A stretch of DNA of 40,436 nt, taken from the IMG/VR virus record IMGVR_UViG_2737471852_000004; one strand, 5' to 3'. This document shows, one piece after another, positions 1 through 40,436 of the stretch. This DNA comes from a virus (lineage: Duplodnaviria > Heunggongvirae > Uroviricota > Caudoviricetes). A program made the translations under genes and the position numbers. Position 1 is the first letter of the stretch, and the number at the start of each line of letters is the position of its first letter. The notes beneath the pieces were generated by a model. It was not told the origin of the DNA. It ran no database searches and saw nothing but the letters and a program-made list of their open reading frames with translations.

Positions 1-1248
1 ATGGCACTGAATATTCCATTCAGAAATGCGTACTATCGTTTTGCATCCAGTTACTCATTTCTCTTTTTTATTTCCTGGTCGCTGTGGTGGTCGTTATACG
101 CTATTTGGCTGAAAGGACATCTAGGGTTGACAGGGACGGAATTAGGTACACTTTATTCGGTCAACCAGTTTACCAGCATTCTATTTATGATGTTCTACGG
201 CATCGTTCAGGATAAACTCGGTCTGAAGAAACCGCTCATCTGGTGTATGAGTTTCATCCTGGTCTTGACCGGACCGTTTATGATTTACGTTTATGAACCG
301 TTACTGCAAAGCAATTTTTCTGTAGGTCTAATTCTGGGGGCGCTCTTTTTTGGCCTGGGGTATCTGGCGGGATGCGGTTTGCTTGACAGCTTCACCGAAA
401 AAATGGCGCGAAATTTTCATTTCGAATATGGAACAGCGCGCGCCTGGGGATCTTTTGGCTATGCTATTGGCGCGTTCTTTGCCGGCATATTTTTTAGTAT
501 CAGTCCCCATATCAACTTCTGGTTGGTCTCGCTATTTGGCGCTGTATTTATGATGATCAACATGTGTTTTAAAGATAAGGATCACCAGTGCGTAGCGGCG
601 GATGCGGGAGGGGTAAAAAAAGAGGATTTTATCGCAGTTTTCAAGGATCGAAACTTCTGGGTTTTCGTCATATTTATTGTGGGGACGTGGTCTTTCTATA
701 ACATTTTTGATCAACAACTTTTTCCTGTCTTTTATGCAGGTTTATTCGAATCACACGATGTAGGAACGCGCCTGTATGGTTATCTCAACTCATTCCAGGT
801 GGTACTCGAAGCGCTATGCATGGCGATTATTCCTTTCTTTGTGAATCGGGTAGGGCCAAAAAATGCATTACTTATCGGTGTTGTGATTATGGCGTTGCGT
901 ATCCTTTCCTGCGCGCTGTTCGTTAACCCCTGGATTATTTCATTAGTGAAGCTGTTACATGCCATTGAGGTTCCACTTTGTGTCATATCCGTCTTCAAAT
1001 ACAGCGTGGCAAACTTTGATAAGCGCCTGTCGTCGACGATCTTTCTGATTGGTTTTCAAATTGCCAGTTCGCTTGGGATTGTGCTGCTTTCAACGCCGAC
1101 TGGGATACTCTTTGACCACGCAGGCTACCAGACAGTTTTCTTCGCAATTTCGGGTATTGTCTGCCTGATGTTGCTATTTGGCATTTTCTTCCTGAGTAAA
1201 AAACGCGAGCAAATAGTTATGGAAACGCCTGTACCTTCAGCAATATAG
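1..1248 (+). CDS. MFS sugar:H+ symporter, LacY / oligosaccharide:H+ symporter family (host flank)
   Basis: 415-aa hydrophobic ORF; motifs FEYGTARAWGSFGYA, YNIFDQQ, GPKNALL, FKYSVANFD align with E. coli LacY as recalled. Confidence 0.85.
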   Translation: MALNIPFRNAYYRFASSYSFLFFISWSLWWSLYAIWLKGHLGLTGTELGTLYSVNQFTSILFMMFYGIVQDKLGLKKPLIWCMSFILVLTGPFMIYVYEPLLQSNFSVGLILGALFFGLGYLAGCGLLDSFTEKMARNFHFEYGTARAWGSFGYAIGAFFAGIFFSISPHINFWLVSLFGAVFMMINMCFKDKDHQCVAADAGGVKKEDFIAVFKDRNFWVFVIFIVGTWSFYNIFDQQLFPVFYAGLFESHDVGTRLYGYLNSFQVVLEALCMAIIPFFVNRVGPKNALLIGVVIMALRILSCALFVNPWIISLVKLLHAIEVPLCVISVFKYSVANFDKRLSSTIFLIGFQIASSLGIVLLSTPTGILFDHAGYQTVFFAISGIVCLMLLFGIFFLSKKREQIVMETPVPSAI

Positions 1249-1256
1249 ACGTAAAC

Positions 1257-1300
1257 TTTTCCGGTTGTTGTCGATATCTCCCTATCCCTCAACCGGAAAA
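1257..1300 (+). terminator. Hairpin immediately after MFS stop: 11-bp perfect inverted repeat (TTTTCCGGTTG / CAACCGGAAAA), 22-nt loop
   Basis: Inverted repeat read directly; loop is long and the downstream tract is A/T-rich rather than a clean U-run. Confidence 0.35.
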
Positions 1301-1772
1301 TAATAATACTAAAGTGCTTAGCCCTGCTAATAATCACCTAATCCAAACGCCTCATTCATGTTCTGGTACAGTCGCTCAAATGTACTTCAGATGCGCGGTT
1401 CGCTGATTTCCAGGACATTGTCGTCATTCAGCGACCTGTCCCGTGTATCACGGTCCTGCGAATTCATCAAGGAATGCATTGCGGAGTGAAGTATCGAGTC
1501 ACGCCATATTTCGCTATCAGGATTCTGTGTGATGGTTACATCGCCCGGCCCAGGGCTGTTTAGTCATCAGCGCTTTCTGACAGTGCTGAGATTTCAACCT
1601 GTTGCAGTAAAAATGAGTAGATATAGGGCATGCTGCCAAACCCATCTTTTACGGAGTGAAGGTAGATTTCGTTTGAAGGGTATCTGGTGTCCCCTGCAGA
1701 CATCTACTTGAAGCGGCAGGGGATTGATTGGAATGGTATTTTTTAGATGTGAGAAATATTTTACCCGCTATT

Positions 1773-1973
1773 TTACCCATTGGCGCGGCTTAAGAGCTTA
1801 TTTTTGAATTCACAATGGTCACGATATAACCATCTTGCTCGCCCGTGGATAACTTTGGCTTTAGGCAGGTCTCCGGACTTAATCCGGTCGTAGATGAAGG
1901 TTTTACCGAAGCCAGTATCGGCCATGATGAATTTCAAATCAACCAGTGAATCAGGCTGTAGTTCGTGTTGCAT
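1773..1973 (-). CDS. xis: Excisionase / AlpA-family DNA-binding protein
   Basis: 66 aa; HTH pattern ...MADTGFGKTFIYDRIKSGDLPKAKVIHGRARWLYRDHCEFK matches AlpA/Xis family; RBS GGAG 6 nt upstream of ATG at 1973; terminal gene of leftward operon. Confidence 0.7.
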   Translation of the reverse strand: MQHELQPDSLVDLKFIMADTGFGKTFIYDRIKSGDLPKAKVIHGRARWLYRDHCEFKNKLLSRANG

Positions 1974-2015: not shown

Positions 2016-2038
2016 AAAAAAACCGCCATCAGGCGGCT
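2016..2038 (-). terminator. Intrinsic terminator on minus strand (stem CCGCC/GGCGG, loop TGAT, U7 tract)
   Basis: Minus-strand RNA reads AAGCCGCC-TGAT-GGCGG-TTTTTTT; sits 40 nt after the 3' end of the 2080-2379 gene. Confidence 0.6.
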
Positions 2039-2079
2039 TGGTGTTCTTTCAGTTCTTCAATTCGAATGTTGGTTACGTC

Positions 2080-28697: not shown

Positions 28698-29235
28698 CAC
28701 CAGCACAGAGCGCGGATGGTTAATACCAACCAGTGGCGATCCGGATTATGACGAAGCGCTCGACAGGCTGTTAAGCCAGTGGATGCGTAACGTTTCCGGT
28801 CTGTCTGCCGGGATGGTTCGTCCGCGCTGGCAGAAAGAGCAGCCGCCACTGCTACCGGCTGAAACGAACTGGTGTGCGTTTGGGGTTATCGGATGGTCAG
28901 GTGATGACAGTCCGGCATTCACCAGACAGACCGATGATGGCTCTCAGCTCTGGCGGCATGAAACGATTGAGTGTATGGCTTCGTTTTATGGTCCGGCTGG
29001 GATGGTGTATGCGTCCCGGTTTCGTGACGGTATATCTGTACCGCAGAACAACGCAGCACTGAATGCGCTGGGGCTGTCTCTTGGCGATTACACAGGTCTG
29101 ACTCCCTTCCCTGAACTTATTAATCAGCAATGGGTCCGCCGCTACGATATGACGGTGCGTCTGCGCCGGAAGGTTGTGCGCGAGTACGGTATTAAATCGC
29201 TGGTGGAAGCACCAGCCATCTTTTTCGGAGATTAA
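28672..29235 (+). CDS. Putative tail completion protein
   Basis: About 187 aa; start uncertain; immediately upstream of the sheath gene. Confidence 0.4.
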   Translation: MGEFRLSNNTSTERGWLIPTSGDPDYDEALDRLLSQWMRNVSGLSAGMVRPRWQKEQPPLLPAETNWCAFGVIGWSGDDSPAFTRQTDDGSQLWRHETIECMASFYGPAGMVYASRFRDGISVPQNNAALNALGLSLGDYTGLTPFPELINQQWVRRYDMTVRLRRKVVREYGIKSLVEAPAIFFGD

Positions 29236-29238
29236 GCT

Positions 29239-30384
29239 ATGGCACAGGGCTTGCCTGTATCAAACGTTGTTAATGTTGATGTGATCATGTCGCCGCGTGC
29301 AGCATCAGGGCGAAATTTTGGTGCATTACTCATTCTCGGCCCGTCCACAATCATTCCGGTAAGTGAGCGCATTCGCCGTTATTCTGCCGCGGAAGATATT
29401 GGAAAAGATTTTGGCGTGGAATCACCAGAATATAAAGCTGCGCAGGTGTTTTTCTCACAATCACCGAAACCTCAGGAGGTTTTTGTTGGTCGTTGGGTGA
29501 AAACGAAGGGAGACAGCGAACAGGCCACGCCTGAGACGCTGGAGCAGGCTGTGAATGCCATGCTTGATTATACTTCATGGTATGGGCTGGGGATTGCAGA
29601 CGATGCAGATATTCCGGATGCAGACTGGCTGAAAGTGGCTGCGGAGATCGAATCCTCTTCTGTAAGCCGTATTCTGGCGATTACGACAAGCGATGAGAAA
29701 TGCCTGCAGACTGCATCCAGCGATGATTTGGCATCAAAACTGAAAACCGCCGGATATTCACGCAGTTTTATTCAATATTCATCGGGTAATAAATACGCTG
29801 CGTTATCTGCATTTGGCCGGGCATTCACGGTTAATTTCAATGGCAGTAATACCGCGATTACGCTCAAGTTTAAGCAGGAGCCGGGTGTCGGGTATGAAAC
29901 ACTGACAGTCAGCCAGGCATCGGCACTTGATGCAAAAAACTGCAATGTGTTCGTGTACTACCAGAATGATACAGCTATCCTCCAGCAGGGAGTGATGGCT
30001 AACGGCGATTTCTTTGATGAACGCCACGGCCTGGACTGGTTACAGAATTATGTGCAGACCAACCTCTATAACCTGCTTTATACCAGCACCACGAAAGTAC
30101 CCCAGACTGAAGCCGGTATTACCCGACTGTTATCAAGTGTTGAAAAATCACTGGATCAGGCCGTTCAGAATGGACTGATTGCTCCGGGCGTATGGAACGG
30201 GGGCGACCTTGGTCAGTTGTCATCAGGTGACACACTGCCCAAAGGTTATTACGTATACGCTCAGCCGCTGGATGAACAGGCTCAATCAGAACGTGAAGCC
30301 CGTAAGGCTCCGGTGATTCAGGCTGCAATAAAACTTGCAGGCGCGGTTCATTACGCTGACGTACAGATTAACGTTGTTCGCTAA
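29239..30384 (+). CDS. Putative contractile tail sheath protein
   Basis: 381 aa followed by a 146-aa tube-sized gene, chaperone and tape measure (canonical myovirus order). Confidence 0.6.
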
Positions 30385-30394
30385 GGGGAAGTGA

Positions 30395-30835
30395 ATGTCT
30401 ACCTATTCTTTTATGGATGTCACTGCGACGCTGACCGGGCCGACCGGTTCGATTGACCTCGGGTACGGTTCTGCAAGTTCTGAAGAGGGGATTGTGGTTG
30501 CGATGGGCGGTCCTAAAAACACCATGACCATCGGTGCTGATGGTGAAGTGATGCACAGCCTCCATGCAGATAAAAGCGGGACGATTACCGTTAACCTTCT
30601 GAAGACATCACAGACAAATAAAAAATTGTCGCTGGCGTATAACGCACAGAGCCAGTCTTCTGCCACATGGGGGAATAACGTTATTGTGATCCGAAACAAG
30701 GTCAGCGGCGACATCATCACGGCACGTAGTGTTGCGTTCCAGAAACAACCGGATAATGCCAACGCTAAAACCGGTAATACGATGCCGTGGGTGTTTGACT
30801 GCGGCAAGATTGACCAGGTTCTCGGGGAGTTTTAA
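30395..30835 (+). CDS. Putative tail tube protein
   Basis: 146 aa, between sheath and chaperone genes. Confidence 0.55.
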   Translation: MSTYSFMDVTATLTGPTGSIDLGYGSASSEEGIVVAMGGPKNTMTIGADGEVMHSLHADKSGTITVNLLKTSQTNKKLSLAYNAQSQSSATWGNNVIVIRNKVSGDIITARSVAFQKQPDNANAKTGNTMPWVFDCGKIDQVLGEF

Positions 30836-30838
30836 TAC

Positions 30839-31291
30839 ATGGAATTCGAAATCAAAGGCATGAAATATCGCGTGGCAAAACTCAGCGTTTTTGACCAGCT
30901 GAAAGTGACCCGCAAACTTCTGCCGGTACTGGCGGGAATGATGTCAGATTTCGGGAGCATTCGCTCATGTTTGCCTGCTGACGGCAAAATCGACACCGTG
31001 AAATTCGAGCAGTTAAAACCGGTGTTTGAAACCATGCTCCCGCGTATCGCTGAGGAACTGTCTTCCCTGACTGAAGAAGATACCAACGCGATTATTCATC
31101 CTTGCCTGGCCGTAGTGTCACGTAAGCACATGGACGGATGGACGCCGGTATTCAACAGCGGTCAGCTGATGTTCGATGATATCGACCTGCTAACCATGCT
31201 GCAGTTGGTGGCGCGGGTGGTCGCCGATTCACTGGGAAATTTTTTGCCTACACCCCTTACCAGCACGACACAGAGCCTGCAACAGGGCTGA
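30839..31291 (+). CDS. Tail assembly chaperone (short form)
   Basis: 150 aa directly upstream of the tape measure gene; contains a slippery heptamer near its 3' end. Confidence 0.6.
   Translation: MEFEIKGMKYRVAKLSVFDQLKVTRKLLPVLAGMMSDFGSIRSCLPADGKIDTVKFEQLKPVFETMLPRIAEELSSLTEEDTNAIIHPCLAVVSRKHMDGWTPVFNSGQLMFDDIDLLTMLQLVARVVADSLGNFLPTPLTSTTQSLQQG
31240..31246 (+). other. Candidate -1 programmed frameshift site T_TTT_TTG; the -1 frame stays open to 31479, giving an extended chaperone of about 213 aa
   Basis: Zero-frame codons AAT TTT TTG; the -1 frame from 31240 has no stop until TGA at 31477-31479, overlapping the tape measure start. Confidence 0.5.
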
Positions 31292-31468
31292 CGTTTAACA
31301 GCCTGCCGGACGGGCTGTCCTACCTTCTCAATCCGGTTGACGCCGGGTTAATTCCCTATACAGCACTTAAAGATGGCTCTGTCGATTTGTATGACATTGC
31401 TCTCTTGAATGACCATCTGGCGGTAAAAGCGGATAACCAGCGGCGCATTGAGAAATGGAGAGAGGATA

Positions 31469-33457
31469 ATGAACGCTGAAACTATTAAAGATTTCCTCGT
31501 CTCGCTTGGCTTCAGTGTGGATGAGGCAGGCGCGAAAAAGTTCGGTTCTGTCCTCGCCGGTACAACTGCAAATGTCATCAAAATGGGGGTGGCCGTTGAA
31601 GGAGCTGCACTGTCTGTGGTGGCCTTTACGGCTAAGATTGCCTCCGGCCTGGATAATCTTTACTGGGCGTCACAGCGCACCGGCGCGACAGTCCAGGGAA
31701 TTCAGTCTATTGGCTATGCGGTTTCGCAGGTTGGCGGCAGCGTGGACGCTGCGCGATCTTCTCTGGAAAGCCTCTCCCGGTTTATTCGTAACAATCCCGG
31801 TGCAGAAGGTTTTCTGAATCGCCTGGGCGTACAGACCCGTGATGCCAGCGGTAACATGCGTGACATGGCCGCTATTTTTACAGGTGTAGGCCAGAAGCTC
31901 AGCGGCATGCCGTATTACCGGGCTAACCAGTATGCGCAGATGCTGGGCATTGACGAAAATACCCTTATGGCGATGCGCCGGGGTGTGGGTGGCTTCTCCG
32001 GGCAGTACAGCGCAATGGCGAAAGCTATCGGCTTCAATGCTGACGAGGCGGCCAGAAGCTCCAACAAATTTATGACCTCCCTGCGTGAGTTTGGCGCGAT
32101 GGCAGGCATGGCCCGTGACAAAATCGGCTCTAATCTTGCGGGTGGGCTTGCGGGTTCGCTGGACACTCTGCGCCGCCATATCCTGGACAACTTCCCGCGT
32201 ATCGAGCAGACCCTGACGAAAGCCATAAAAGGCATTCTGGCGCTCGGGGATATTATCGGGCGGTTGTTCTTCAGACTGATTGAGGGGACATCAGGCCTTA
32301 TCACCTGGTGGCAATCGCTGGATAAGCAAACGCGGGAGCTCATCTCGCTGTTTGGCGCGCTGACGATTGCGCTGCGCATTCTGAACAGTACGTTCTGGAT
32401 GTCGCCGATTGGCCTCATTACCGCGTTGGCGGCGGGGATTGCCCTTCTGTGGGAGGACTATCAGACCTGGAAGGAAGGCGGCGACAGCCTGATTGACTGG
32501 GGTAAGTGGAAGCCGGAGGTCGATGCCGCGCTGAAGATGGTTCGTGACCTGAAAGGGTCTGTTAATGAACTGGCGAAAGCGCTGGCGAAACTGCTCAATA
32601 TTGACCCCAAATCATGGTCCCTGAAGTGGGATTTCAGCAACTTCATCGACCAGATGGGCGAATTCAGCAAAATGCTGAACATGATCGCCGACCTGCTCAA
32701 CGCTATCAAAGATGGCCGCTGGGCTGATGCCGTCAGCATCAGCAAACAGATACTTAATCAGGGCAGCGAAAATCCGTCAGCGATGCCGATGGTTACAGAC
32801 AGCGCTAACAGTACTGCCGACTGGATTAAAGAGCACTGGGGATTCGATCCTCGCAGCGTGGGCCGGACGGTACGCGGCTGGTTTGGTGATGATGAGCCGG
32901 AACAATATGCACAGGCTACGAAACGAGGAGAACGGAATAACAATCCGGGAAACCTTAATTTTGCTGGTCAGGCAGGGGCTTCTCTTGAACGCCCGGGCGG
33001 GCGATTTGCCAGATTTGAAACTGCTTTTGATGGATTACGGGCTCTTGCTCGTCAGTTAATGTTGTACGCCGGACGTGGAATAAACAGCGTGGAGAAAATT
33101 ATCTCTACCTGGGCACCTGCGTCTGATAATAACAACACAACTGCGTATATCAGGGCTGTATCGCAACGACTGGGAGTGGATCCCCGGGCTACCCTGAATA
33201 TGAGCGATCCGCAAACCATGTCAGCATTGATGAGCAGTATTATCCAGCATGAAAATGGAAGAAATATCTATTCTCGAGAGCTGATTAATAAGGCTGCCGT
33301 GGCAGGAATTAGTGGCAAAGTGACAGAGGTTAACCAGCAAAATACTTACCACATTTACGGTGGCGGAGATCCGCACGCTGTCGGTAATGAGGTTGCACGT
33401 CGGCAACAGTCTGCAAATGCTCAGGTCATGCGAAGTAATCAGGTGAGGGTGGGTTAG
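31469..33457 (+). CDS. Tail tape measure protein
   Basis: 662 aa, largely helical/low complexity, directly after the chaperone; ATG 31469 with GAGAGAGGA RBS. Confidence 0.75.
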   Translation: MNAETIKDFLVSLGFSVDEAGAKKFGSVLAGTTANVIKMGVAVEGAALSVVAFTAKIASGLDNLYWASQRTGATVQGIQSIGYAVSQVGGSVDAARSSLESLSRFIRNNPGAEGFLNRLGVQTRDASGNMRDMAAIFTGVGQKLSGMPYYRANQYAQMLGIDENTLMAMRRGVGGFSGQYSAMAKAIGFNADEAARSSNKFMTSLREFGAMAGMARDKIGSNLAGGLAGSLDTLRRHILDNFPRIEQTLTKAIKGILALGDIIGRLFFRLIEGTSGLITWWQSLDKQTRELISLFGALTIALRILNSTFWMSPIGLITALAAGIALLWEDYQTWKEGGDSLIDWGKWKPEVDAALKMVRDLKGSVNELAKALAKLLNIDPKSWSLKWDFSNFIDQMGEFSKMLNMIADLLNAIKDGRWADAVSISKQILNQGSENPSAMPMVTDSANSTADWIKEHWGFDPRSVGRTVRGWFGDDEPEQYAQATKRGERNNNPGNLNFAGQAGASLERPGGRFARFETAFDGLRALARQLMLYAGRGINSVEKIISTWAPASDNNNTTAYIRAVSQRLGVDPRATLNMSDPQTMSALMSSIIQHENGRNIYSRELINKAAVAGISGKVTEVNQQNTYHIYGGGDPHAVGNEVARRQQSANAQVMRSNQVRVG

Positions 33458-34044
33458 TGGATATTCTCTCTACACTTTTTCATCAGCAGAGCAGAAAAAT
33501 AGGAATGATTGTTCCCAGTGTTGTTATTTCAGAGAAGCATACAGATATGCTTGAAATAACAGAGCATCCGGTAGAGGTCGGGGCCGCTGTCGCTGATCAT
33601 GCCTATAAAAAACCGTCAGAAGTGGTGATGGAGGTTGGTTTCGCCGGTGGCGGCGCATTGCTGGATTTTGCCAGTAATCTGACGGCTACCAGCCTGCTCG
33701 GCCTGAGTCCTCAGCAGACGTATCAGGAGCTACTGGATCTGCAGGAAAGCCGTATCCCCTTCGATGTGGTAACCGGTAAACGACTGTACAGCAACATGTT
33801 GATCCGGGCGCTGGAAGTGACGACGGACAAGACAACCGAAAACGTCCTGTCCGCCGTCCTCACCCTGAGGGAGGTCCTTATCTCCCGGACGCAGCAGATT
33901 ACCGTCGCGGATAAAACCAACATGAAGGAAGGGGCCAGCACGTCGGCGGTACAGAATAGCGGCAACAAAACCACAAAGCCTCCAGATACTTCACTGCTGA
34001 AAAGCATCACGGGTAACGTGGCGTCATTACTGGGAGGCGGCTAA
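33457..34044 (+). CDS. Putative tail/baseplate protein
   Basis: 195 aa after tape measure; GTG start overlapping the TMP stop. Confidence 0.4.
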   Translation: MDILSTLFHQQSRKIGMIVPSVVISEKHTDMLEITEHPVEVGAAVADHAYKKPSEVVMEVGFAGGGALLDFASNLTATSLLGLSPQQTYQELLDLQESRIPFDVVTGKRLYSNMLIRALEVTTDKTTENVLSAVLTLREVLISRTQQITVADKTNMKEGASTSAVQNSGNKTTKPPDTSLLKSITGNVASLLGGG

Positions 34045-34346
34045 TGACAATTCAGGAAATTCCGCTGACAGCGGACAACCAGCAGTTCAGCATCGTCCTG
34101 GGTGGTGTCACTTGGCAGATTAGCATCATATGGCGCGATCCTTACTGGATTATGGACCTGCAGAACGACAGAGGAGAGCCGGTAATCTCCGGTATTCCTC
34201 TCGTCACTGGCGCTGATCTGCTGGCGCAGTACGCCTGTATGGGACTTGGTTTTAAGCTGTTGGTAGTCTGCGATGACAACACACAGGATTATCCCACGAA
34301 AACTGACCTGGGCGGGCGCAGTCATTTACTGGTATCAACGGAGTAA
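34044..34346 (+). CDS. Putative tail/baseplate protein (100 aa)
   Basis: TAATG-coupled ORF. Confidence 0.4.
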   Translation: MTIQEIPLTADNQQFSIVLGGVTWQISIIWRDPYWIMDLQNDRGEPVISGIPLVTGADLLAQYACMGLGFKLLVVCDDNTQDYPTKTDLGGRSHLLVSTE

Positions 34347-34348
34347 GC

Positions 34349-35413
34349 ATGTCACAGAACTGGATGAGACATTTCGAGCTGCAGCTTGTGGACGGGAACG
34401 GTAAGGGAATTGAGCTAAGTGATTTCAAAGTCACCTTTACGATTGACTGGTTCAACATCAGCAGCGCGTCCCGGGTAGGGACTATCAAAATTTATAACCT
34501 CTCGGCAGATACTGTGAACCGAATCACCGGGAAGGAATTTTCAAAAGTGCGGCTGATTGCCGGTTACGACAGTATCGCGCCGGAGGTGGCGGCAAGCGAC
34601 GTCGGGACCGTGCGCGAAGTCGACGCGGCAGATGTGGGCCAGAGTGATGGCCGCAACTACGGGCTGATTTTCAGCGGAGAAATTCGCTACTCGGTCACAG
34701 GAAAAGACAGCCCTATTGATTCCTATGTCCTGATTCAGGCAGCAGATACGGATCTGGCATTTGTCACCAGTATAACCTCACAGACGCTGGCTGCCGGTTA
34801 CACGGTCGCTGATGTAAACCGTGCGCTGATGAAAGACTTCGAAGCCAAAGGCGCGACCGAAGGCCTGACGCCTGAAATGCCTGCTACTGTATTCCCCCGG
34901 GGGCGGGTGCTCTTTGGCATGACGCGGCATCTTATGGATAACGTAGCCGGGCAATGTGGCGCAACATGGCAATTCGTGGACGGTCAACGCCAGATGGTGG
35001 CGAATAACGAATATGTTCATGAAGCGATTGTGCTCAACAGCGCCACCGGGCTTATCGGCATGCCGCAGCAGACTATCGGCAACGGCGTAAACGTCCGCGC
35101 GCTTATTAATCCGAACATCCGGGTTAATGGGCTCATTCAACTGGATCAGGCTTCCGTATATCGCACCGCGTTGTCGAACAACGATATTGCGATGGCTGGT
35201 GGGCAGATCACCGACCAGAACACGGACGGAAATATCACGCTAAGCGGCACCACAGCACAACCTGCCAGCATCGCAACGGATGGCGTTTATATTGTGCGCG
35301 GGATTATGTACACTGGCGATACAAGGGGCCAGGCGTGGTACATGGATATGATGTGCGAAGCGCGTGGCGCGGCGGATCTTGTTTCCTCATCAGCGAGGGA
35401 AAGAGGGCTTTAA
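34349..35413 (+). CDS. Putative baseplate hub protein
   Basis: 354 aa in the baseplate cluster upstream of the spike gene. Confidence 0.45.
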   Translation: MSQNWMRHFELQLVDGNGKGIELSDFKVTFTIDWFNISSASRVGTIKIYNLSADTVNRITGKEFSKVRLIAGYDSIAPEVAASDVGTVREVDAADVGQSDGRNYGLIFSGEIRYSVTGKDSPIDSYVLIQAADTDLAFVTSITSQTLAAGYTVADVNRALMKDFEAKGATEGLTPEMPATVFPRGRVLFGMTRHLMDNVAGQCGATWQFVDGQRQMVANNEYVHEAIVLNSATGLIGMPQQTIGNGVNVRALINPNIRVNGLIQLDQASVYRTALSNNDIAMAGGQITDQNTDGNITLSGTTAQPASIATDGVYIVRGIMYTGDTRGQAWYMDMMCEARGAADLVSSSARERGL

Positions 35414-35745
35414 TGAAACGGTTATGTTTGGCGTTAGTTATGATGGTTACTGCTCCGGCGATGGCTGCAATTCAGTGCGGCAACTACACGATGACCGGTG
35501 ACGGAATGACTGTTATTAACGGTGAAACTGTCACATCACAGAAGATAAAATTTCTGGGAAAAGATGGTGACTATTCAAACATAAAAATGGACATGGGCCT
35601 GATGCCTTCCCGTGATGGTAACAATTACGGCTTTGAGTTTGTGAAACGTAACGGAAAAGCTTTCCTGAATGTCCAACTGCTGCAGAACAGCATGGATGCG
35701 CCGAAAATCATCGGTTCCTTTCCATGCAAAAAGATTGTTGATTAA
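35413..35745 (+). CDS. Small secreted protein with cleavable signal peptide (moron candidate)
   Basis: MKRLCLALVMMVTAPAMA-AIQC...: positive n-region, hydrophobic core, AXA cleavage site; ATG overlaps upstream stop; unexpected inside a baseplate cluster. Confidence 0.55.
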   Translation: MKRLCLALVMMVTAPAMAAIQCGNYTMTGDGMTVINGETVTSQKIKFLGKDGDYSNIKMDMGLMPSRDGNNYGFEFVKRNGKAFLNVQLLQNSMDAPKIIGSFPCKKIVD

Positions 35746-35762
35746 TCACTCGTAATTATAAT
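35735..35762 (+). promoter_or_regulatory. Candidate sigma70 promoter for the small membrane protein gene (-35 TTGTTG, 16-bp spacer, -10 TATAAT)
   Basis: Perfect TATAAT at 35757-35762 in an AT-rich intergenic stretch. Confidence 0.4.
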
Positions 35763-35798
35763 GTGATACTTCTACTTTCACGATAAGGAATTTGTCGC

Positions 35799-36038
35799 AT
35801 GTTCGGATTTGATAAATTAATAACTCCAAAAATCATCAACGTTCTGTATGGCATCACAATGTTACTTCTGGTTGTTGCCGCCATTATAACGTTTGTTAAT
35901 GGGAAGGCTGCTGGCGCTTTAGTGCTTTTGTTATGTGCTGTATTTTGCCGAATATTCTTTGAGTGCATCATGGTTTCATTTAAAAACAATGAGTATCTTC
36001 GCCGAATAGCTGAAGCGTTAGAAGCAAACAAGCAGTAA
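35799..36038 (+). CDS. Small two-TM membrane protein (79 aa; moron candidate)
   Basis: Two hydrophobic helices (ILYGITMLLLVVAAIITFV and ALVLLLCAVFCRIFFECIMV); own promoter and terminator; AT-rich relative to neighbours. Confidence 0.5.
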   Translation: MFGFDKLITPKIINVLYGITMLLLVVAAIITFVNGKAAGALVLLLCAVFCRIFFECIMVSFKNNEYLRRIAEALEANKQ

Positions 36039-36054
36039 TGAAACTTCAATAATG

Positions 36055-36080
36055 AACCCGCCACCCGGCGGGTTTTTTGC
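36055..36080 (+). terminator. Intrinsic terminator after the membrane-protein gene (stem ACCCGCC/GGCGGGT, loop ACCC, U6)
   Basis: Perfect 7-bp GC stem then TTTTTT. Confidence 0.65.
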
Positions 36081-36097
36081 TTTCTGGAGCCTACTAA

Positions 36098-36853
36098 ATG
36101 GCAGTATCTGACCAGACCCGCAGCGGCGACCTTGCTGAAACATTCAAATCTGAACGGGAAACAACAAAGAACCAGATCCGTGTCGCCTTGCCTGGCATTG
36201 TTCAGTCATTCGATCCCGACGCGGTGACGGCGGTTGTGCAGCCAGCTATCCGTTCGGTTGAAAAGGATAACGACGGCAAGCGCATTACCAAAAATTACCC
36301 ATTGCTGGTGGATGTGCCAGTGGTATTCCCGAGCGGCGGAGGATGCACGCTAACGTTCCCAGTTAAAGCCGGTGATGAATGTTTGGTGATTTTTGCCGAT
36401 CGTTGTATTGATTTCTGGTGGCAGAGCGGCGGAATACAGGAACCGGTCGATGACAGAATGCATGATTTATCGGATGCGTTTTGTATCGTCGGTCCGCAGT
36501 CTCAGGCGCAGAAAATCAGCGGAATCAGCACCAGCGCCGCGCAACTGCGTACTGATGATGGCGCTGCGTTTGTGGAAGTGGCCGCAGGCCATAACATCAC
36601 GGTTAAAACCCCCGGCGCGCTGACGGCGACAGCAGAAGGAGGAACCACGATCACATCACCCACCATCACGCTAAACGGCAACGTGACAATAAACGGGAAT
36701 CTCTCTCAGGGGATGGGCGAAAGCGGCGGCACCGCGACGATGCTTGGCCCTGTCACGGTGACTAACGATGTAAAAGCTGGTGGTAAGAGCCTGATAACGC
36801 ACACGCACGGCGGAGTACAGACCGGCGGCGGTAACACAGGAGCGCCTAACTGA
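36098..36853 (+). CDS. Baseplate central spike protein (gp138 / gpV-like)
   Basis: N-terminal gp138-like domain (IRVALPGIVQSF..., ECLVIFADRCIDFWW) and C-terminal beta-helix with THTHGG. Confidence 0.7.
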   Translation: MAVSDQTRSGDLAETFKSERETTKNQIRVALPGIVQSFDPDAVTAVVQPAIRSVEKDNDGKRITKNYPLLVDVPVVFPSGGGCTLTFPVKAGDECLVIFADRCIDFWWQSGGIQEPVDDRMHDLSDAFCIVGPQSQAQKISGISTSAAQLRTDDGAAFVEVAAGHNITVKTPGALTATAEGGTTITSPTITLNGNVTINGNLSQGMGESGGTATMLGPVTVTNDVKAGGKSLITHTHGGVQTGGGNTGAPN

Positions 36854-37206
36854 TGCGATACAGACGTGAAGACGCCGATGGCGATTACACCTTTGGCAGC
36901 GGTGATGACACCTGGCTGATTAACTCACCGGAGGCCGTGGCGCAGGCGGTAAAAACGCGATTCGAATTGTGGTATGGGCAATGGTTTCTCGACACCACCG
37001 AGGGGACTCCGTGGATCCAGTCCGTACTCGGTAAGCAGAAGCCGGAAACCTACAACCTGGCGATCCGTAAGCGCATCCTCGAAACGCGGGGCGTTAAATC
37101 AATCCTCTCTTTCAATACGACGGTGGATACCACGACCCGACGTGTCATGTTTTCCGCTGAAATCGACACTCTTTATGGAATAACGACTGTTACATCGGAG
37201 GCGTAA
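36853..37206 (+). CDS. Baseplate wedge protein (gpW/gp25-like)
   Basis: 117 aa between spike and J-like genes; assignment mainly by position. Confidence 0.5.
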   Translation: MRYRREDADGDYTFGSGDDTWLINSPEAVAQAVKTRFELWYGQWFLDTTEGTPWIQSVLGKQKPETYNLAIRKRILETRGVKSILSFNTTVDTTTRRVMFSAEIDTLYGITTVTSEA

Positions 37207-38405
37207 TGGCTCTGAACCTTGATTCTCTCGGTTTATCTGCAAAGGTAACCGCGGAGGGGATCAGTGCGCCTGATTATCAGACGATACTCAGCACCCTGAT
37301 TAGCTATTTTCAGCAGATTTATGGCAGTGATGCCTACCTCGAACCGGACAGCAAAGACGGCCAGATGGTGGCTCTGATGGCGCTGGCGATTCATGATGCC
37401 AATAATATGGCGATAACTGTCTACAACTGTTTTTCACCGGCAACCGGCTATGGGGCTGCACTGACCAGTAACGTGAAAATAAATGGTATTTCACGTAAAG
37501 GCGCGACGAATTCTACGGTTGATTTGCTTCTTACAGGAACTGCCGGAACAACCATCATTAATGGCAGCGTGAAAGACAGTAATAATGTGATATGGCGTTT
37601 GCCTGCTTCAGTGGTGGTCGGCGTGGATGGTACAGTGATGGTGACCGCAAAATGTTCCGTCAGTGGTGCAGTGGCGGCGCTGGCTGGAACTATCACTGAA
37701 ATTAATACGCCAACCCGTGGCTGGGTTTCGGTAACCAATCCTGCTGCAGCTACTGTAGGCACTCCAGCAGAAACTGATGCGGAGTTACGTATCCGCCAGT
37801 CGCAAAGTGTTGCGTTGCCATCAATAACCCCATTTGAAGCACTGGATGGTGCTGTTTCTAATGTTACCGGTGTAACCCGCCACAAACTCTATGAAAACGA
37901 TACTGGTTCGGAGGACGGTAACGGGTTACCGCCACACTCTGTTGCTGTAATTGTGGATGGCGGTGATGTAACGGATATTGCTCAGGCTATCAGAGGAAAT
38001 AAAGGCCAGGGGACAGCCACTCACGGTACAACATCCGTTACGGTTCCGGATAAATACGGCAATCCCCATGTAATCAAATTCTCGCGTTCCAGTGATGTGC
38101 CTGTTTATGCCCGGATTAAATTAAAAGTTTTTACGGGTTATACCTCACAGATAGGGCAGCAGATCCAGCAGGCTATTTCCGACTATATCAATAGTCTGAT
38201 GATTGGTGATTCGGTCCTTTTAAGTCGCATTTACTCACCGGCGAATCTTGGCGTGGTGAGTAGCGGGAATGCACGCTATTACGATATTCAGGAACTGACG
38301 ATTGGGAAATCCCCGGGGGCTTTGTCGTCATCAAACATTGATATCAGATACAACGAATCTGCGTCCTGTACCCCGGAAAATATCGTTATAACGGTGGAGT
38401 CATGA
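37206..38405 (+). CDS. Baseplate J-like protein
   Basis: 399 aa; position and size fit the gpJ/gp47 baseplate family. Confidence 0.6.
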   Translation: MALNLDSLGLSAKVTAEGISAPDYQTILSTLISYFQQIYGSDAYLEPDSKDGQMVALMALAIHDANNMAITVYNCFSPATGYGAALTSNVKINGISRKGATNSTVDLLLTGTAGTTIINGSVKDSNNVIWRLPASVVVGVDGTVMVTAKCSVSGAVAALAGTITEINTPTRGWVSVTNPAAATVGTPAETDAELRIRQSQSVALPSITPFEALDGAVSNVTGVTRHKLYENDTGSEDGNGLPPHSVAVIVDGGDVTDIAQAIRGNKGQGTATHGTTSVTVPDKYGNPHVIKFSRSSDVPVYARIKLKVFTGYTSQIGQQIQQAISDYINSLMIGDSVLLSRIYSPANLGVVSSGNARYYDIQELTIGKSPGALSSSNIDIRYNESASCTPENIVITVES

Positions 38406-39082
38406 GCAAATACACCGAACTAATCACGAACTACCACGCCACCAAACCTAAATTTCTTGCGCATGTTGATCTGATGACCCGGCCACTTATTGATGTTGCG
38501 GCTGCCACCAGAGGGCTGATTACTGCATTTGATATTGACTCTGCGGTTGGTGTGCAACTTGACATTCTTGGATTGTGGATCGGACGTAGCCGTGTTGTCA
38601 GCCAGCCTATCTCAGGTGTCTATTTCAGCTGGGATACCGACGGGCTTGGATATGATCAGGGGGTATGGCAGGGACCATACGATCCTGATTCAGGATACAT
38701 GTATCTCAGCGATGAAACTTATCGTGTCATTCTTAAAGCGAAGATTGCGATTAATAACTGGGATGGACGGAATGATTCGCTTCCGGCAATTCTTGACGCG
38801 GCGACAGCAGGATCCGGACTGCGAATGCAGATAGTCGATAACCAGGACATGACGATATCGGTCTGGGTCTTTCCTGATACTGATATTTCAGATGTATCGC
38901 GTGAGTTAATTGCGGCAATTAAACAGGGGTATCTCACAGTAAAAGCCGCCGGGGTATGGGCGGGTGGCATTGAAACACCTTCGGTGGAAACCCCATCGGA
39001 AGGCTCAAAATTTTTTGGTTTTGATATGGATAACGAATTCATCAGTGGTTTTGATGTAGGAGCATGGGGAGTATTACTCTGA
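38402..39082 (+). CDS. Putative baseplate / tail-fiber attachment protein
   Basis: 226 aa; between J-like and fiber genes. Confidence 0.45.
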   Translation: MSKYTELITNYHATKPKFLAHVDLMTRPLIDVAAATRGLITAFDIDSAVGVQLDILGLWIGRSRVVSQPISGVYFSWDTDGLGYDQGVWQGPYDPDSGYMYLSDETYRVILKAKIAINNWDGRNDSLPAILDAATAGSGLRMQIVDNQDMTISVWVFPDTDISDVSRELIAAIKQGYLTVKAAGVWAGGIETPSVETPSEGSKFFGFDMDNEFISGFDVGAWGVLL

Positions 39083-40230
39083 TGGCGAAAAATGACTTTA
39101 AAGCGTTTGCAACGGATCGAAATGCCAATGTTATATCGCAGGAGGAATGGGAAGCGTTGCCCGCGCTTTTATCCGGATTTACAGCAGGGAAAGCCTCTAG
39201 TGCGCAAGTCAATAAGGTTATTCGGCAGGCCAGCTTTATTGCTGCAGCTCTGGCCCAGTTTGTAAGTGATAAAACGCAACGGGATGTGCTTGATAATGGT
39301 GATCTGCCCGGTTTTGTTGAATTGCTGGGATCGGGGTTTGCTGTTGAATACCTGAGCCGCAAGAATCCGTTTGGCGATATCAAATCGGATGGCACTGTGC
39401 AAACGGCTCTCGAAAACCTGGGAATGACAGACATTCTGAATGATAAACAGGATAAAAATGATAATCTGACATCATTGTCGAGCTTAACAGGAATACCGGA
39501 TGGGCTGGCATTTTTTACAGGTGCTGGAACAATGGATATGACAGCGCTGACTCAAAATGGTAGGGAAATTTTAAGTAAAAAAAACGTATCGGAAACTCTA
39601 CAATATTTAACACTTGGTGATGGAACAGGAAGGCTTTTGGGGGTTCAGGTATTTGGATCATCTGGGACTTATCACAAATCACCTGGTGTAACGAAAATTA
39701 TAGTGGAAGCCGTTGGCGGTGGTGGTGCCAGTGGCAATTTATCAGCAACAGCCTCAAATAACTGTGGTGTAAGTGCTGCCGGTTCCAACGGGGCATATGC
39801 TAAAGCATTTTTTTATCAGTCTATACCTGAATCCGTGCAAGTAACTATTGGAAGCGGTGGTGTAGCAGGAACAGGACCAGGAGGCTCTGGAGGTGACGGC
39901 GGGAATACAAGCTTTGGTGATTTGCTTGTATGCCCGGGAGGAAGGGGATCAACTCAAGTTCAGCAGGTACCTCCATTTTCAGGGGGAAGTGCAACAGAAG
40001 CACCAATTCCTACAGGGCAAGGGATTCTGTTCCATTCAGTTTCACGATCAAATTTATGTGGGGCACTTGGACTTGGTGATGATCAGGCGATTGGCGTTGA
40101 AAGTATAACCACTACTATGCTTGGGACATACGGTATTGGCGGGACAGGTAAATACAATAAGGCGTCATCAGGCCCAGCGACAGGAAATAATGGAAATCAG
40201 GGATATATTCTTGTGTGGGAGTATCAGTAA
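39082..40230 (+). CDS. Tail fiber protein with Gly-rich C-terminal region
   Basis: N-terminus MAKNDFKAFATDRNANVISQEEWEALPALLSGFTAGKASSAQVN typical of phage side tail fiber N-termini; Gly-rich distal half. Confidence 0.7.
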   Translation: MAKNDFKAFATDRNANVISQEEWEALPALLSGFTAGKASSAQVNKVIRQASFIAAALAQFVSDKTQRDVLDNGDLPGFVELLGSGFAVEYLSRKNPFGDIKSDGTVQTALENLGMTDILNDKQDKNDNLTSLSSLTGIPDGLAFFTGAGTMDMTALTQNGREILSKKNVSETLQYLTLGDGTGRLLGVQVFGSSGTYHKSPGVTKIIVEAVGGGGASGNLSATASNNCGVSAAGSNGAYAKAFFYQSIPESVQVTIGSGGVAGTGPGGSGGDGGNTSFGDLLVCPGGRGSTQVQQVPPFSGGSATEAPIPTGQGILFHSVSRSNLCGALGLGDDQAIGVESITTTMLGTYGIGGTGKYNKASSGPATGNNGNQGYILVWEYQ

Positions 40231-40436
40231 TGAGCGATATTTATGCAGTCGTACAAAATGGTGTCGTTACAAATCTTGTTGTATGGGATGGTAAGTCAGA
40301 GTTTAAGCCAGAAAAAGCGGATATAGTTAAATGTGTTGGAGATGTTGGTATTGGCTGGTTATATGATGGTGAAAAATTCATCAAGCCTTCCTTAAAACAA
40401 GACGACGTTATACTTACTGAGTGGAGAGCCAGTTAA
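40230..40436 (+). CDS. Small protein after tail fiber (possible tail fiber assembly/chaperone-like)
   Basis: 68 aa, TAATG-coupled to the fiber gene; window ends at its stop. Confidence 0.35.
   Translation: MSDIYAVVQNGVVTNLVVWDGKSEFKPEKADIVKCVGDVGIGWLYDGEKFIKPSLKQDDVILTEWRAS

Follow-up and report, generated by a model that had tools for sequence, protein, structure and literature searches.

In the KplE1 (CPS-53) prophage of Escherichia coli K-12, intS is the first gene and torI the last (PMC3509656), and the phage attachment site (attP) of this type of recombination module is located between the excisionase gene and the integrase gene (PMC2951348; PMC3509656). IntS catalyses both integration and excision, and its gene has a promoter of its own, overlapping with attL, from which transcription is repressed by both IntS and TorI. 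Excision also needs TorI, which occupies five cooperative sites on attL and from there directs KplE1 out of the chromosome (PMC2951348; PMC3509656). The att core of this prophage has been published as CTGCAGGGGACACCAT (PMC2951348). The same arrangement is found in the records of HK620 and Sf6, a coliphage and a Shigella phage that are both P22-like podoviruses (Lederbergvirus), where the attP core is annotated between the TorI gene (hkaC in HK620, gp18 in Sf6) and int. Phages lambda and P22 resemble the module analysed here in having a tyrosine integrase, a small winged-helix excisionase, arm-type and core sites, and an excisionase gene that ends the early leftward operon. The difference is that in lambda and P22 int and xis are on the same side of attP and remain adjacent in the prophage, whereas here attP splits the pair. 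Excision by this module recombines attL with attR into attP and attB with the help of IntS, TorI and IHF, and an in vitro assay of the reaction has been published. The family of elements that use argW is large and comprises, besides KplE1, HK620 and Sf6, also CUS-3 and many prophages of E. coli and Shigella.

The stretch of DNA that we have analysed (40,436 nucleotides, hereafter the window) starts with the host gene cscB, which in csc+ E. coli is the last chromosomal gene ahead of the attachment site at argW, and continues into a prophage whose first gene is an excisionase (Table 1). The gap between the two measures 524 bp, in agreement with the sequence-only reading made earlier of this DNA, which put it at about 520 bp. 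From the lack of an integrase gene there, the same reading had suggested an int-deleted, domesticated and excision-defective prophage, on the assumption that int must follow xis. That assumption is sound for lambda and P22 but does not apply to the KplE1/HK620/Sf6 module, which is the one present here, and the proposed deletion is left without support, the absent int being explained by the layout. What had been overlooked is a 15-nt fragment of argW (1685-1699) that separates, within the interval, 436 bp of host DNA from a phage arm of 73 bp. The interval is thus very probably an ordinary junction between prophage and chromosome, free of any deletion scar, that belongs to the KplE1/CPS-53-HK620-Sf6 type of recombination module. 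Read from left to right, it would be made up of the cscB-argW spacer (1249-1684), the att core (1685-1699) and a phage arm (1700-1772) leading into torI. In the circular phage genome the order would be torI, attP, intS, and integration into argW would cut between torI and intS, leaving torI at one junction (the one seen here) and intS at the other, beside a reconstituted argW. Since the module places attP between the two genes, integration sets them at opposite ends of the prophage, and this is why int is missing beside torI. The junction is in this sense already known biology, the product of a well-characterised and very common recombination module.

Table 1. Features at the prophage-chromosome junction, in the prophage and just past its sequenced part. 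Coordinates refer to the window unless a contig is named.
Feature	Coordinates	Strand	Basis or remark
cscB, host sucrose/oligosaccharide MFS transporter	1-1248	+	ORF; same annotation in matching genomes
Native cscB-argW host spacer, 436 bp, no integrase remnant	1249-1684	.	Identity to empty site
DUF4942-family N-terminus relic in host spacer	1390-1563	-	Pfam PF13708
att core, CTGCAGGGGACACCA, 15-nt copy of argW 3' end	1685-1699	-	Exact match
Prophage body: lambdoid early region and baseplate-type tail genes	1685-40436	.	Runs off right edge
Phage arm, torI-side junction (attR in KplE1 nomenclature)	1700-1795	-	HK620/K-12 match
torI, excisionase (recombination directionality factor) of KplE1/HK620/Sf6 module	1773-1973	-	66 aa
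GDSL/SGNH lipase region	L010:10394-11143; L011:10394-11143; L012:10394-11193; last 26 bases of L021		Just past window

The identity of the excisionase leaves little doubt. All of its 66 residues are identical to those of TorI of E. coli K-12 (100%), the PDB entry 1Z4H ('Tor inhibition protein') matches it with an E value of 6.6e-43, and torI is the RefSeq name of the gene in all matching genomes. The label "AlpA-type excisionase" given to it before was therefore roughly right in that the protein is an excisionase, namely the winged-helix TorI, but the Pfam profiles Phage_AlpA and HTH_17 remain below threshold. TorI is also an inhibitor of the response regulator TorR. Judging by its position, torI would close the early leftward operon. 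Between it and the upstream early gene is a sequence resembling a terminator, a hairpin (AAGCCGCCTGATGGCGGTTT) with a T run after it (2020-2039, minus strand), and at the equivalent position the HK620 record has a cII-dependent promoter annotated. If this hairpin is functional, expression of torI from the early leftward operon would need either antitermination or a promoter of its own.

The core sequence CTGCAGGGGACACCA corresponds to the last 15 bases of the tRNA-Arg(CCU) gene argW and appears only once in the window (0.03 occurrences expected by chance). In K-12, ECL27977, EC31 and EH08-18-36 it ends argW and recurs beside torI; in K-12 this second copy is the pseudogene annotated as 'pawZ'. 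KplE1/CPS-53, HK620 and Sf6 all use this argW-derived sequence as their att core. On the host side, the identity covers 15 nt here and not the 16 that have been published, since in csc+ hosts the base after the core is a G in place of a T. The stop codon of torI is located 73 bp from the core, exactly the spacing found in K-12, and these 73 bp together with the last 23 bp of torI form the phage arm. Over core and arm (1685-1795), 109 of 111 bases match the attP of HK620 and likewise the torI-side junction of K-12 (2 of 111 positions differ from either), and the attP of Sf6 matches the arm in the alignment as well. In the sense of the minus strand, the two differences from K-12 and HK620 are C to T at 1739 and T to C at 1716. 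With torI and the left half of attP taken together, HK620 and Sf6 are 97.9-98.3% identical to the window over 291 bp. The arm contains a direct repeat, GGGTAAAAT (1758-1766 and 1770-1778), and in the HK620 record the annotated attP includes this repeat region. The 135-bp attR substrate described as competent for recombination begins at primer CTCTTAAGCCGCGCCAATGG (PMC3509656). The sequence of this primer can be read in the window at 1777-1796. As expected for the module, the conserved attP arm is contiguous with the 3' end of torI, and torI directly adjoins the junction.

An alignment of six sequences illustrates how the parts fit together. The attP of HK620 and Sf6 is composed of the arm in the window, the core and, up to the ATG of intS, the attL arm seen in argW lysogens, and the window follows attP through the last base of the core and then turns to host sequence. 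Along these lines, the window and the K-12 region torI-pawZ-dsdC align almost without differences as far as the last core base and are unrelated from there on, and two csc+ lysogens remain aligned with the window across the host side. Similarity to K-12, to HK620 and to the prophage of EH08-18-36 ends at 1685, and from these comparisons the boundary of the prophage can be placed at this position, so that only 1700-1772 of the interval 1249-1772 is phage DNA. A 43-codon ORF (1649-1780, minus strand) overlaps the stop codon of torI and crosses the core. It is the prophage-state hybrid of an ORF (hkaB in HK620, gene 17 in Sf6) that in the free phage reads across the attP core. The C-terminal half of the hybrid is host-encoded, and it is therefore probably no real gene.

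The remainder of the interval is native chromosome. The window is 100% identical at 1249-1699 to strain PT62, in which cscB, the spacer, an intact tRNA-Arg gene argW and yfdC are contiguous, i.e., the site (attB) is unoccupied. Since the 436 bp at 1249-1684 are host DNA identical to the empty site, the gap is no deletion scar. The spacer was found in 2637 of 5426 complete E. coli genomes and adjoins a tRNA-Arg gene where the site is empty. Within it is the relic of a DUF4942-family protein, the only near-significant Pfam match among the fragments translated from 1249-1772 (E value 1.7e-4), which covers positions 5-45 of the 190 in the profile and falls short of the gathering score. It appears as a RefSeq pseudogene or as a short CDS in many genomes, among them some in which the site is empty, and may be a vestige of an older argW island or of the event by which the csc genes were acquired.

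Comparison with complete argW lysogens indicates what should be expected at the other end. In each of the four that we have examined (K-12, ECL27977, EC31 and EH08-18-36), torI occupies one end of the prophage and intS-argW-yfdC is found at the opposite one. KplE1 shares with the prophage in the window a 100% identical TorI, the argW-derived core, the 73-bp spacing and 109 of 111 bases of arm plus core, and in both torI is terminal and abuts the junction. However, KplE1 is a 10-kb remnant next to dsdC, whereas the prophage studied here exceeds 38.7 kb within the window, looks complete, adjoins the csc sucrose locus and leaves the right edge before the intS-attL-argW end seen in its relatives. 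The virion genes code for a baseplate-type tail (Baseplate_J, sheath initiator and tube), unlike those of the P22-like HK620 and Sf6, which have no more in common with the window than their recombination module and parts of the early region, a mosaicism typical of lambdoid phages. A much closer relative is the argW prophage of EH08-18-36 (NZ_CP063511.1, about 2,528,850-2,570,060), collinear with the window from 1685 to 40388. The two align over 28.7 kb and are 97.4% identical across the 20-kb late region, but they differ in several early-region cassettes and in the neighbour on the torI side (dsdC in EH08-18-36, cscB in the window). Past the collinear part come an acyltransferase gene, intS, tRNA-Arg and yfdC, intS being located 1.5-2.7 kb past the point that matches 40388.

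Short-read contigs bring the evidence closer to the edge of the window. One of them (L021) is 100% identical to 29082-40436 (11.4 kb) and extends 212 bp further, and this extension is 100% identical to eight other contigs. Six of these eight have enough flank, and all six reach, about 1 kb later, a 385-aa IntS that is 99.5% identical to that of K-12, with argW and yfdC coming next in four of the six. The window itself ends exactly at the stop codon of a 68-codon ORF, which makes a cut at a gene boundary more probable than one imposed by the end of a contig. Taken together with the layout of the relatives, intS most likely lies just beyond the right edge, a position that we infer rather than read, and the series intS-attL-argW-yfdC in the source genome would be found some 1-3 kb past it. 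The layout and the relatives thus favour, on sequence grounds, the fallback of the sequence-only reading, namely a recombinase outside the window. What it had named as the evidence that would count against a deletion, an intact int past the right end accompanied by a matching att repeat, is what every relative examined has, this being a statement about the relatives only.

At the level of the species, matches to torI plus attR were obtained in 1405 genomes and matches to intS-attL in 2443. A combined torI and intS query again matched 2443 genomes, which implies that every genome with torI has an intS match. The torI junction is present in about a quarter of complete E. coli genomes. From the ranking of the matches, at most 89 of 1409 torI-bearing records can be without an intS-attL match of at least 80% coverage, so that at least 93% carry a near-full-length intS (these counts pair genomes, not individual prophages).

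The same figures leave up to about 6% of torI-bearing records that might lack a near-full-length intS, and the prophage could be one of them, i.e., intS may have been deleted or inactivated at the far right end, leaving a domesticated, excision-defective element. The whole window is devoid of a recombinase, the right end lies beyond it, and degraded argW prophages do exist (the 10-kb KplE1 remnant of K-12 and a truncated one in ECL27977). We nevertheless consider such a loss quite unlikely. The missing int is fully accounted for by the layout of the module, and even the degraded prophages of K-12 and ECL27977 retain intS. Neither gene decay nor truncation is apparent in the window, where the ORFs are long and unbroken all the way from the repressor and replication genes to the tail genes and are collinear with a 41-kb relative, and the prophage looks complete. 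Furthermore, the 212 bp that follow the window in the identical contig continue as in the contigs that carry intS. If intS were lost after all, the prophage would be locked in place or reliant on IntS provided in trans by another argW-type element. Both torI and the torI-side junction would still be intact, and the inhibition of TorR could explain why torI had been retained.

More improbable still is a rearranged prophage, with a right end that is not at argW and with torI and its cognate intS no longer flanking a single excisable unit. Possible routes would be an inversion, recombination with another prophage of the IntS or lambdoid type, or a tandem element. In favour of it, a secondary site near tauB is occupied in contigs L014 and L015 by IntS phages whose right-end genes are the same, and late modules identical to those of the window are joined in strain E41 to an int-xis pair of the thrW type, which shows frequent exchange of modules. 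Against this stands the left junction, a clean attR set against the native spacer, the simplest counterpart of which is an attL at argW, as in 4 of the 4 complete argW lysogens examined. Nothing in the window suggests a breakpoint.

The idea that int once followed xis and persists as a decayed pseudogene in 1249-1772, which had in its favour only the expectation from the lambda/P22 layout and the fact that the interval holds only short ORFs, is barely credible given that 1249-1684 is identical to the empty attB of a strain without this prophage, that the phage DNA between core and torI amounts to just 73 bp of conserved attP arm, and that the searches described below returned neither integrase similarity nor an integrase domain. 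With the empty site of PT62 identical in sequence, a decayed integrase in this interval is in fact already refuted.

The sequence-only reading was correct that no int lies between cscB and xis, as verified by both tblastn and Pfam, neither of which detected a recombinase. The tblastn comparison of integrases with the interval and its flanks had been proposed as a check. We have used as queries the IntS proteins of K-12, EH08-18-36, ECL27977 and EC31, a lambda-type integrase of the thrW site and a P4-like integrase, searched against the whole window and against 1101-1900, and all six gave only noise (best E value about 0.8, 22 bits). Nine stop-to-stop fragments of at least 41 aa, the longest from the six-frame translation of 1249-1772, contained no integrase or resolvase Pfam domain at E values up to 10. 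The lambda/P22-type arrangement, with int directly after xis and both on one side of the att site, was not found in the window. Scans of the window for tRNA genes and for Rfam families detected none, and no terminator was predicted in 1249-1772. The interval as a whole had also been suggested as the direct repeat that would mark the two attachment sites. This was not borne out within the window, where neither the interval nor the att core occurs a second time and the only repeats were chance 11-16-mers.

For an ordinary junction of the KplE1 type, the practical result is an exact boundary, with the prophage starting at 1685 and host DNA at 1249-1684. The case also calls for a correction in the logic of annotation. 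An integrase missing beside the excisionase does not imply a defective prophage, and flagging every such end as int-deleted would yield many false alarms.

The extreme right of the window is itself mosaic. The small ORF of the tail region at 40230-40436 contains a breakpoint, the differing part being 40389-40436. E41 and EH08-18-36 agree with the window as far as 40388 and differ from there on, with a 59-aa variant of the ORF and an acyltransferase gene after it, while the last ORF of the window is a 68-aa variant that in other contigs precedes a GDSL-lipase gene. The final 48 bases of the window have no match among complete E. coli genomes, and a pattern scan of IMG/VR was likewise without a match. 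In E41 (L002 and L005; NZ_CP069707.1, about 3,784,900-3,823,400) the last 3.4 kb of the window are found with 99.9% identity, and there the late genes are joined to a lambda-type cassette of adjacent xis and int at thrW, with a P4-like satellite adjoining. This is a clear case of recombination-module swapping between phages that are otherwise near-identical.

In the contigs that share the last gene of the window, a GDSL/SGNH lipase gene comes next. Directly after its ATG there is a perfect tandem repeat with a 10-bp unit, (AAGCCCTGCA)n, where n is 3.9, 4.9 or 9.9 depending on the strain, and the full ORF of 249 aa is obtained only from the allele with 4.9 copies. This looks like slipped-strand phase variation of an accessory gene of the prophage, located between the tail genes and intS, presumably the same position as that of the phase-variable neuO in CUS-3. 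Short-read contigs break at this repeat, and it is there that L021 stops.

Two contigs, L014 (5769-5960) and L015 (2879-3070), carry an IntS with 100% protein identity to the argW-associated one, together with the same attL arm. In these contigs intS adjoins tauB-tauC-tauD-hemB and not argW, and the identity at the junction core is limited to GGGACACCA (9 nt), so that they apparently represent integration at a secondary attachment site.
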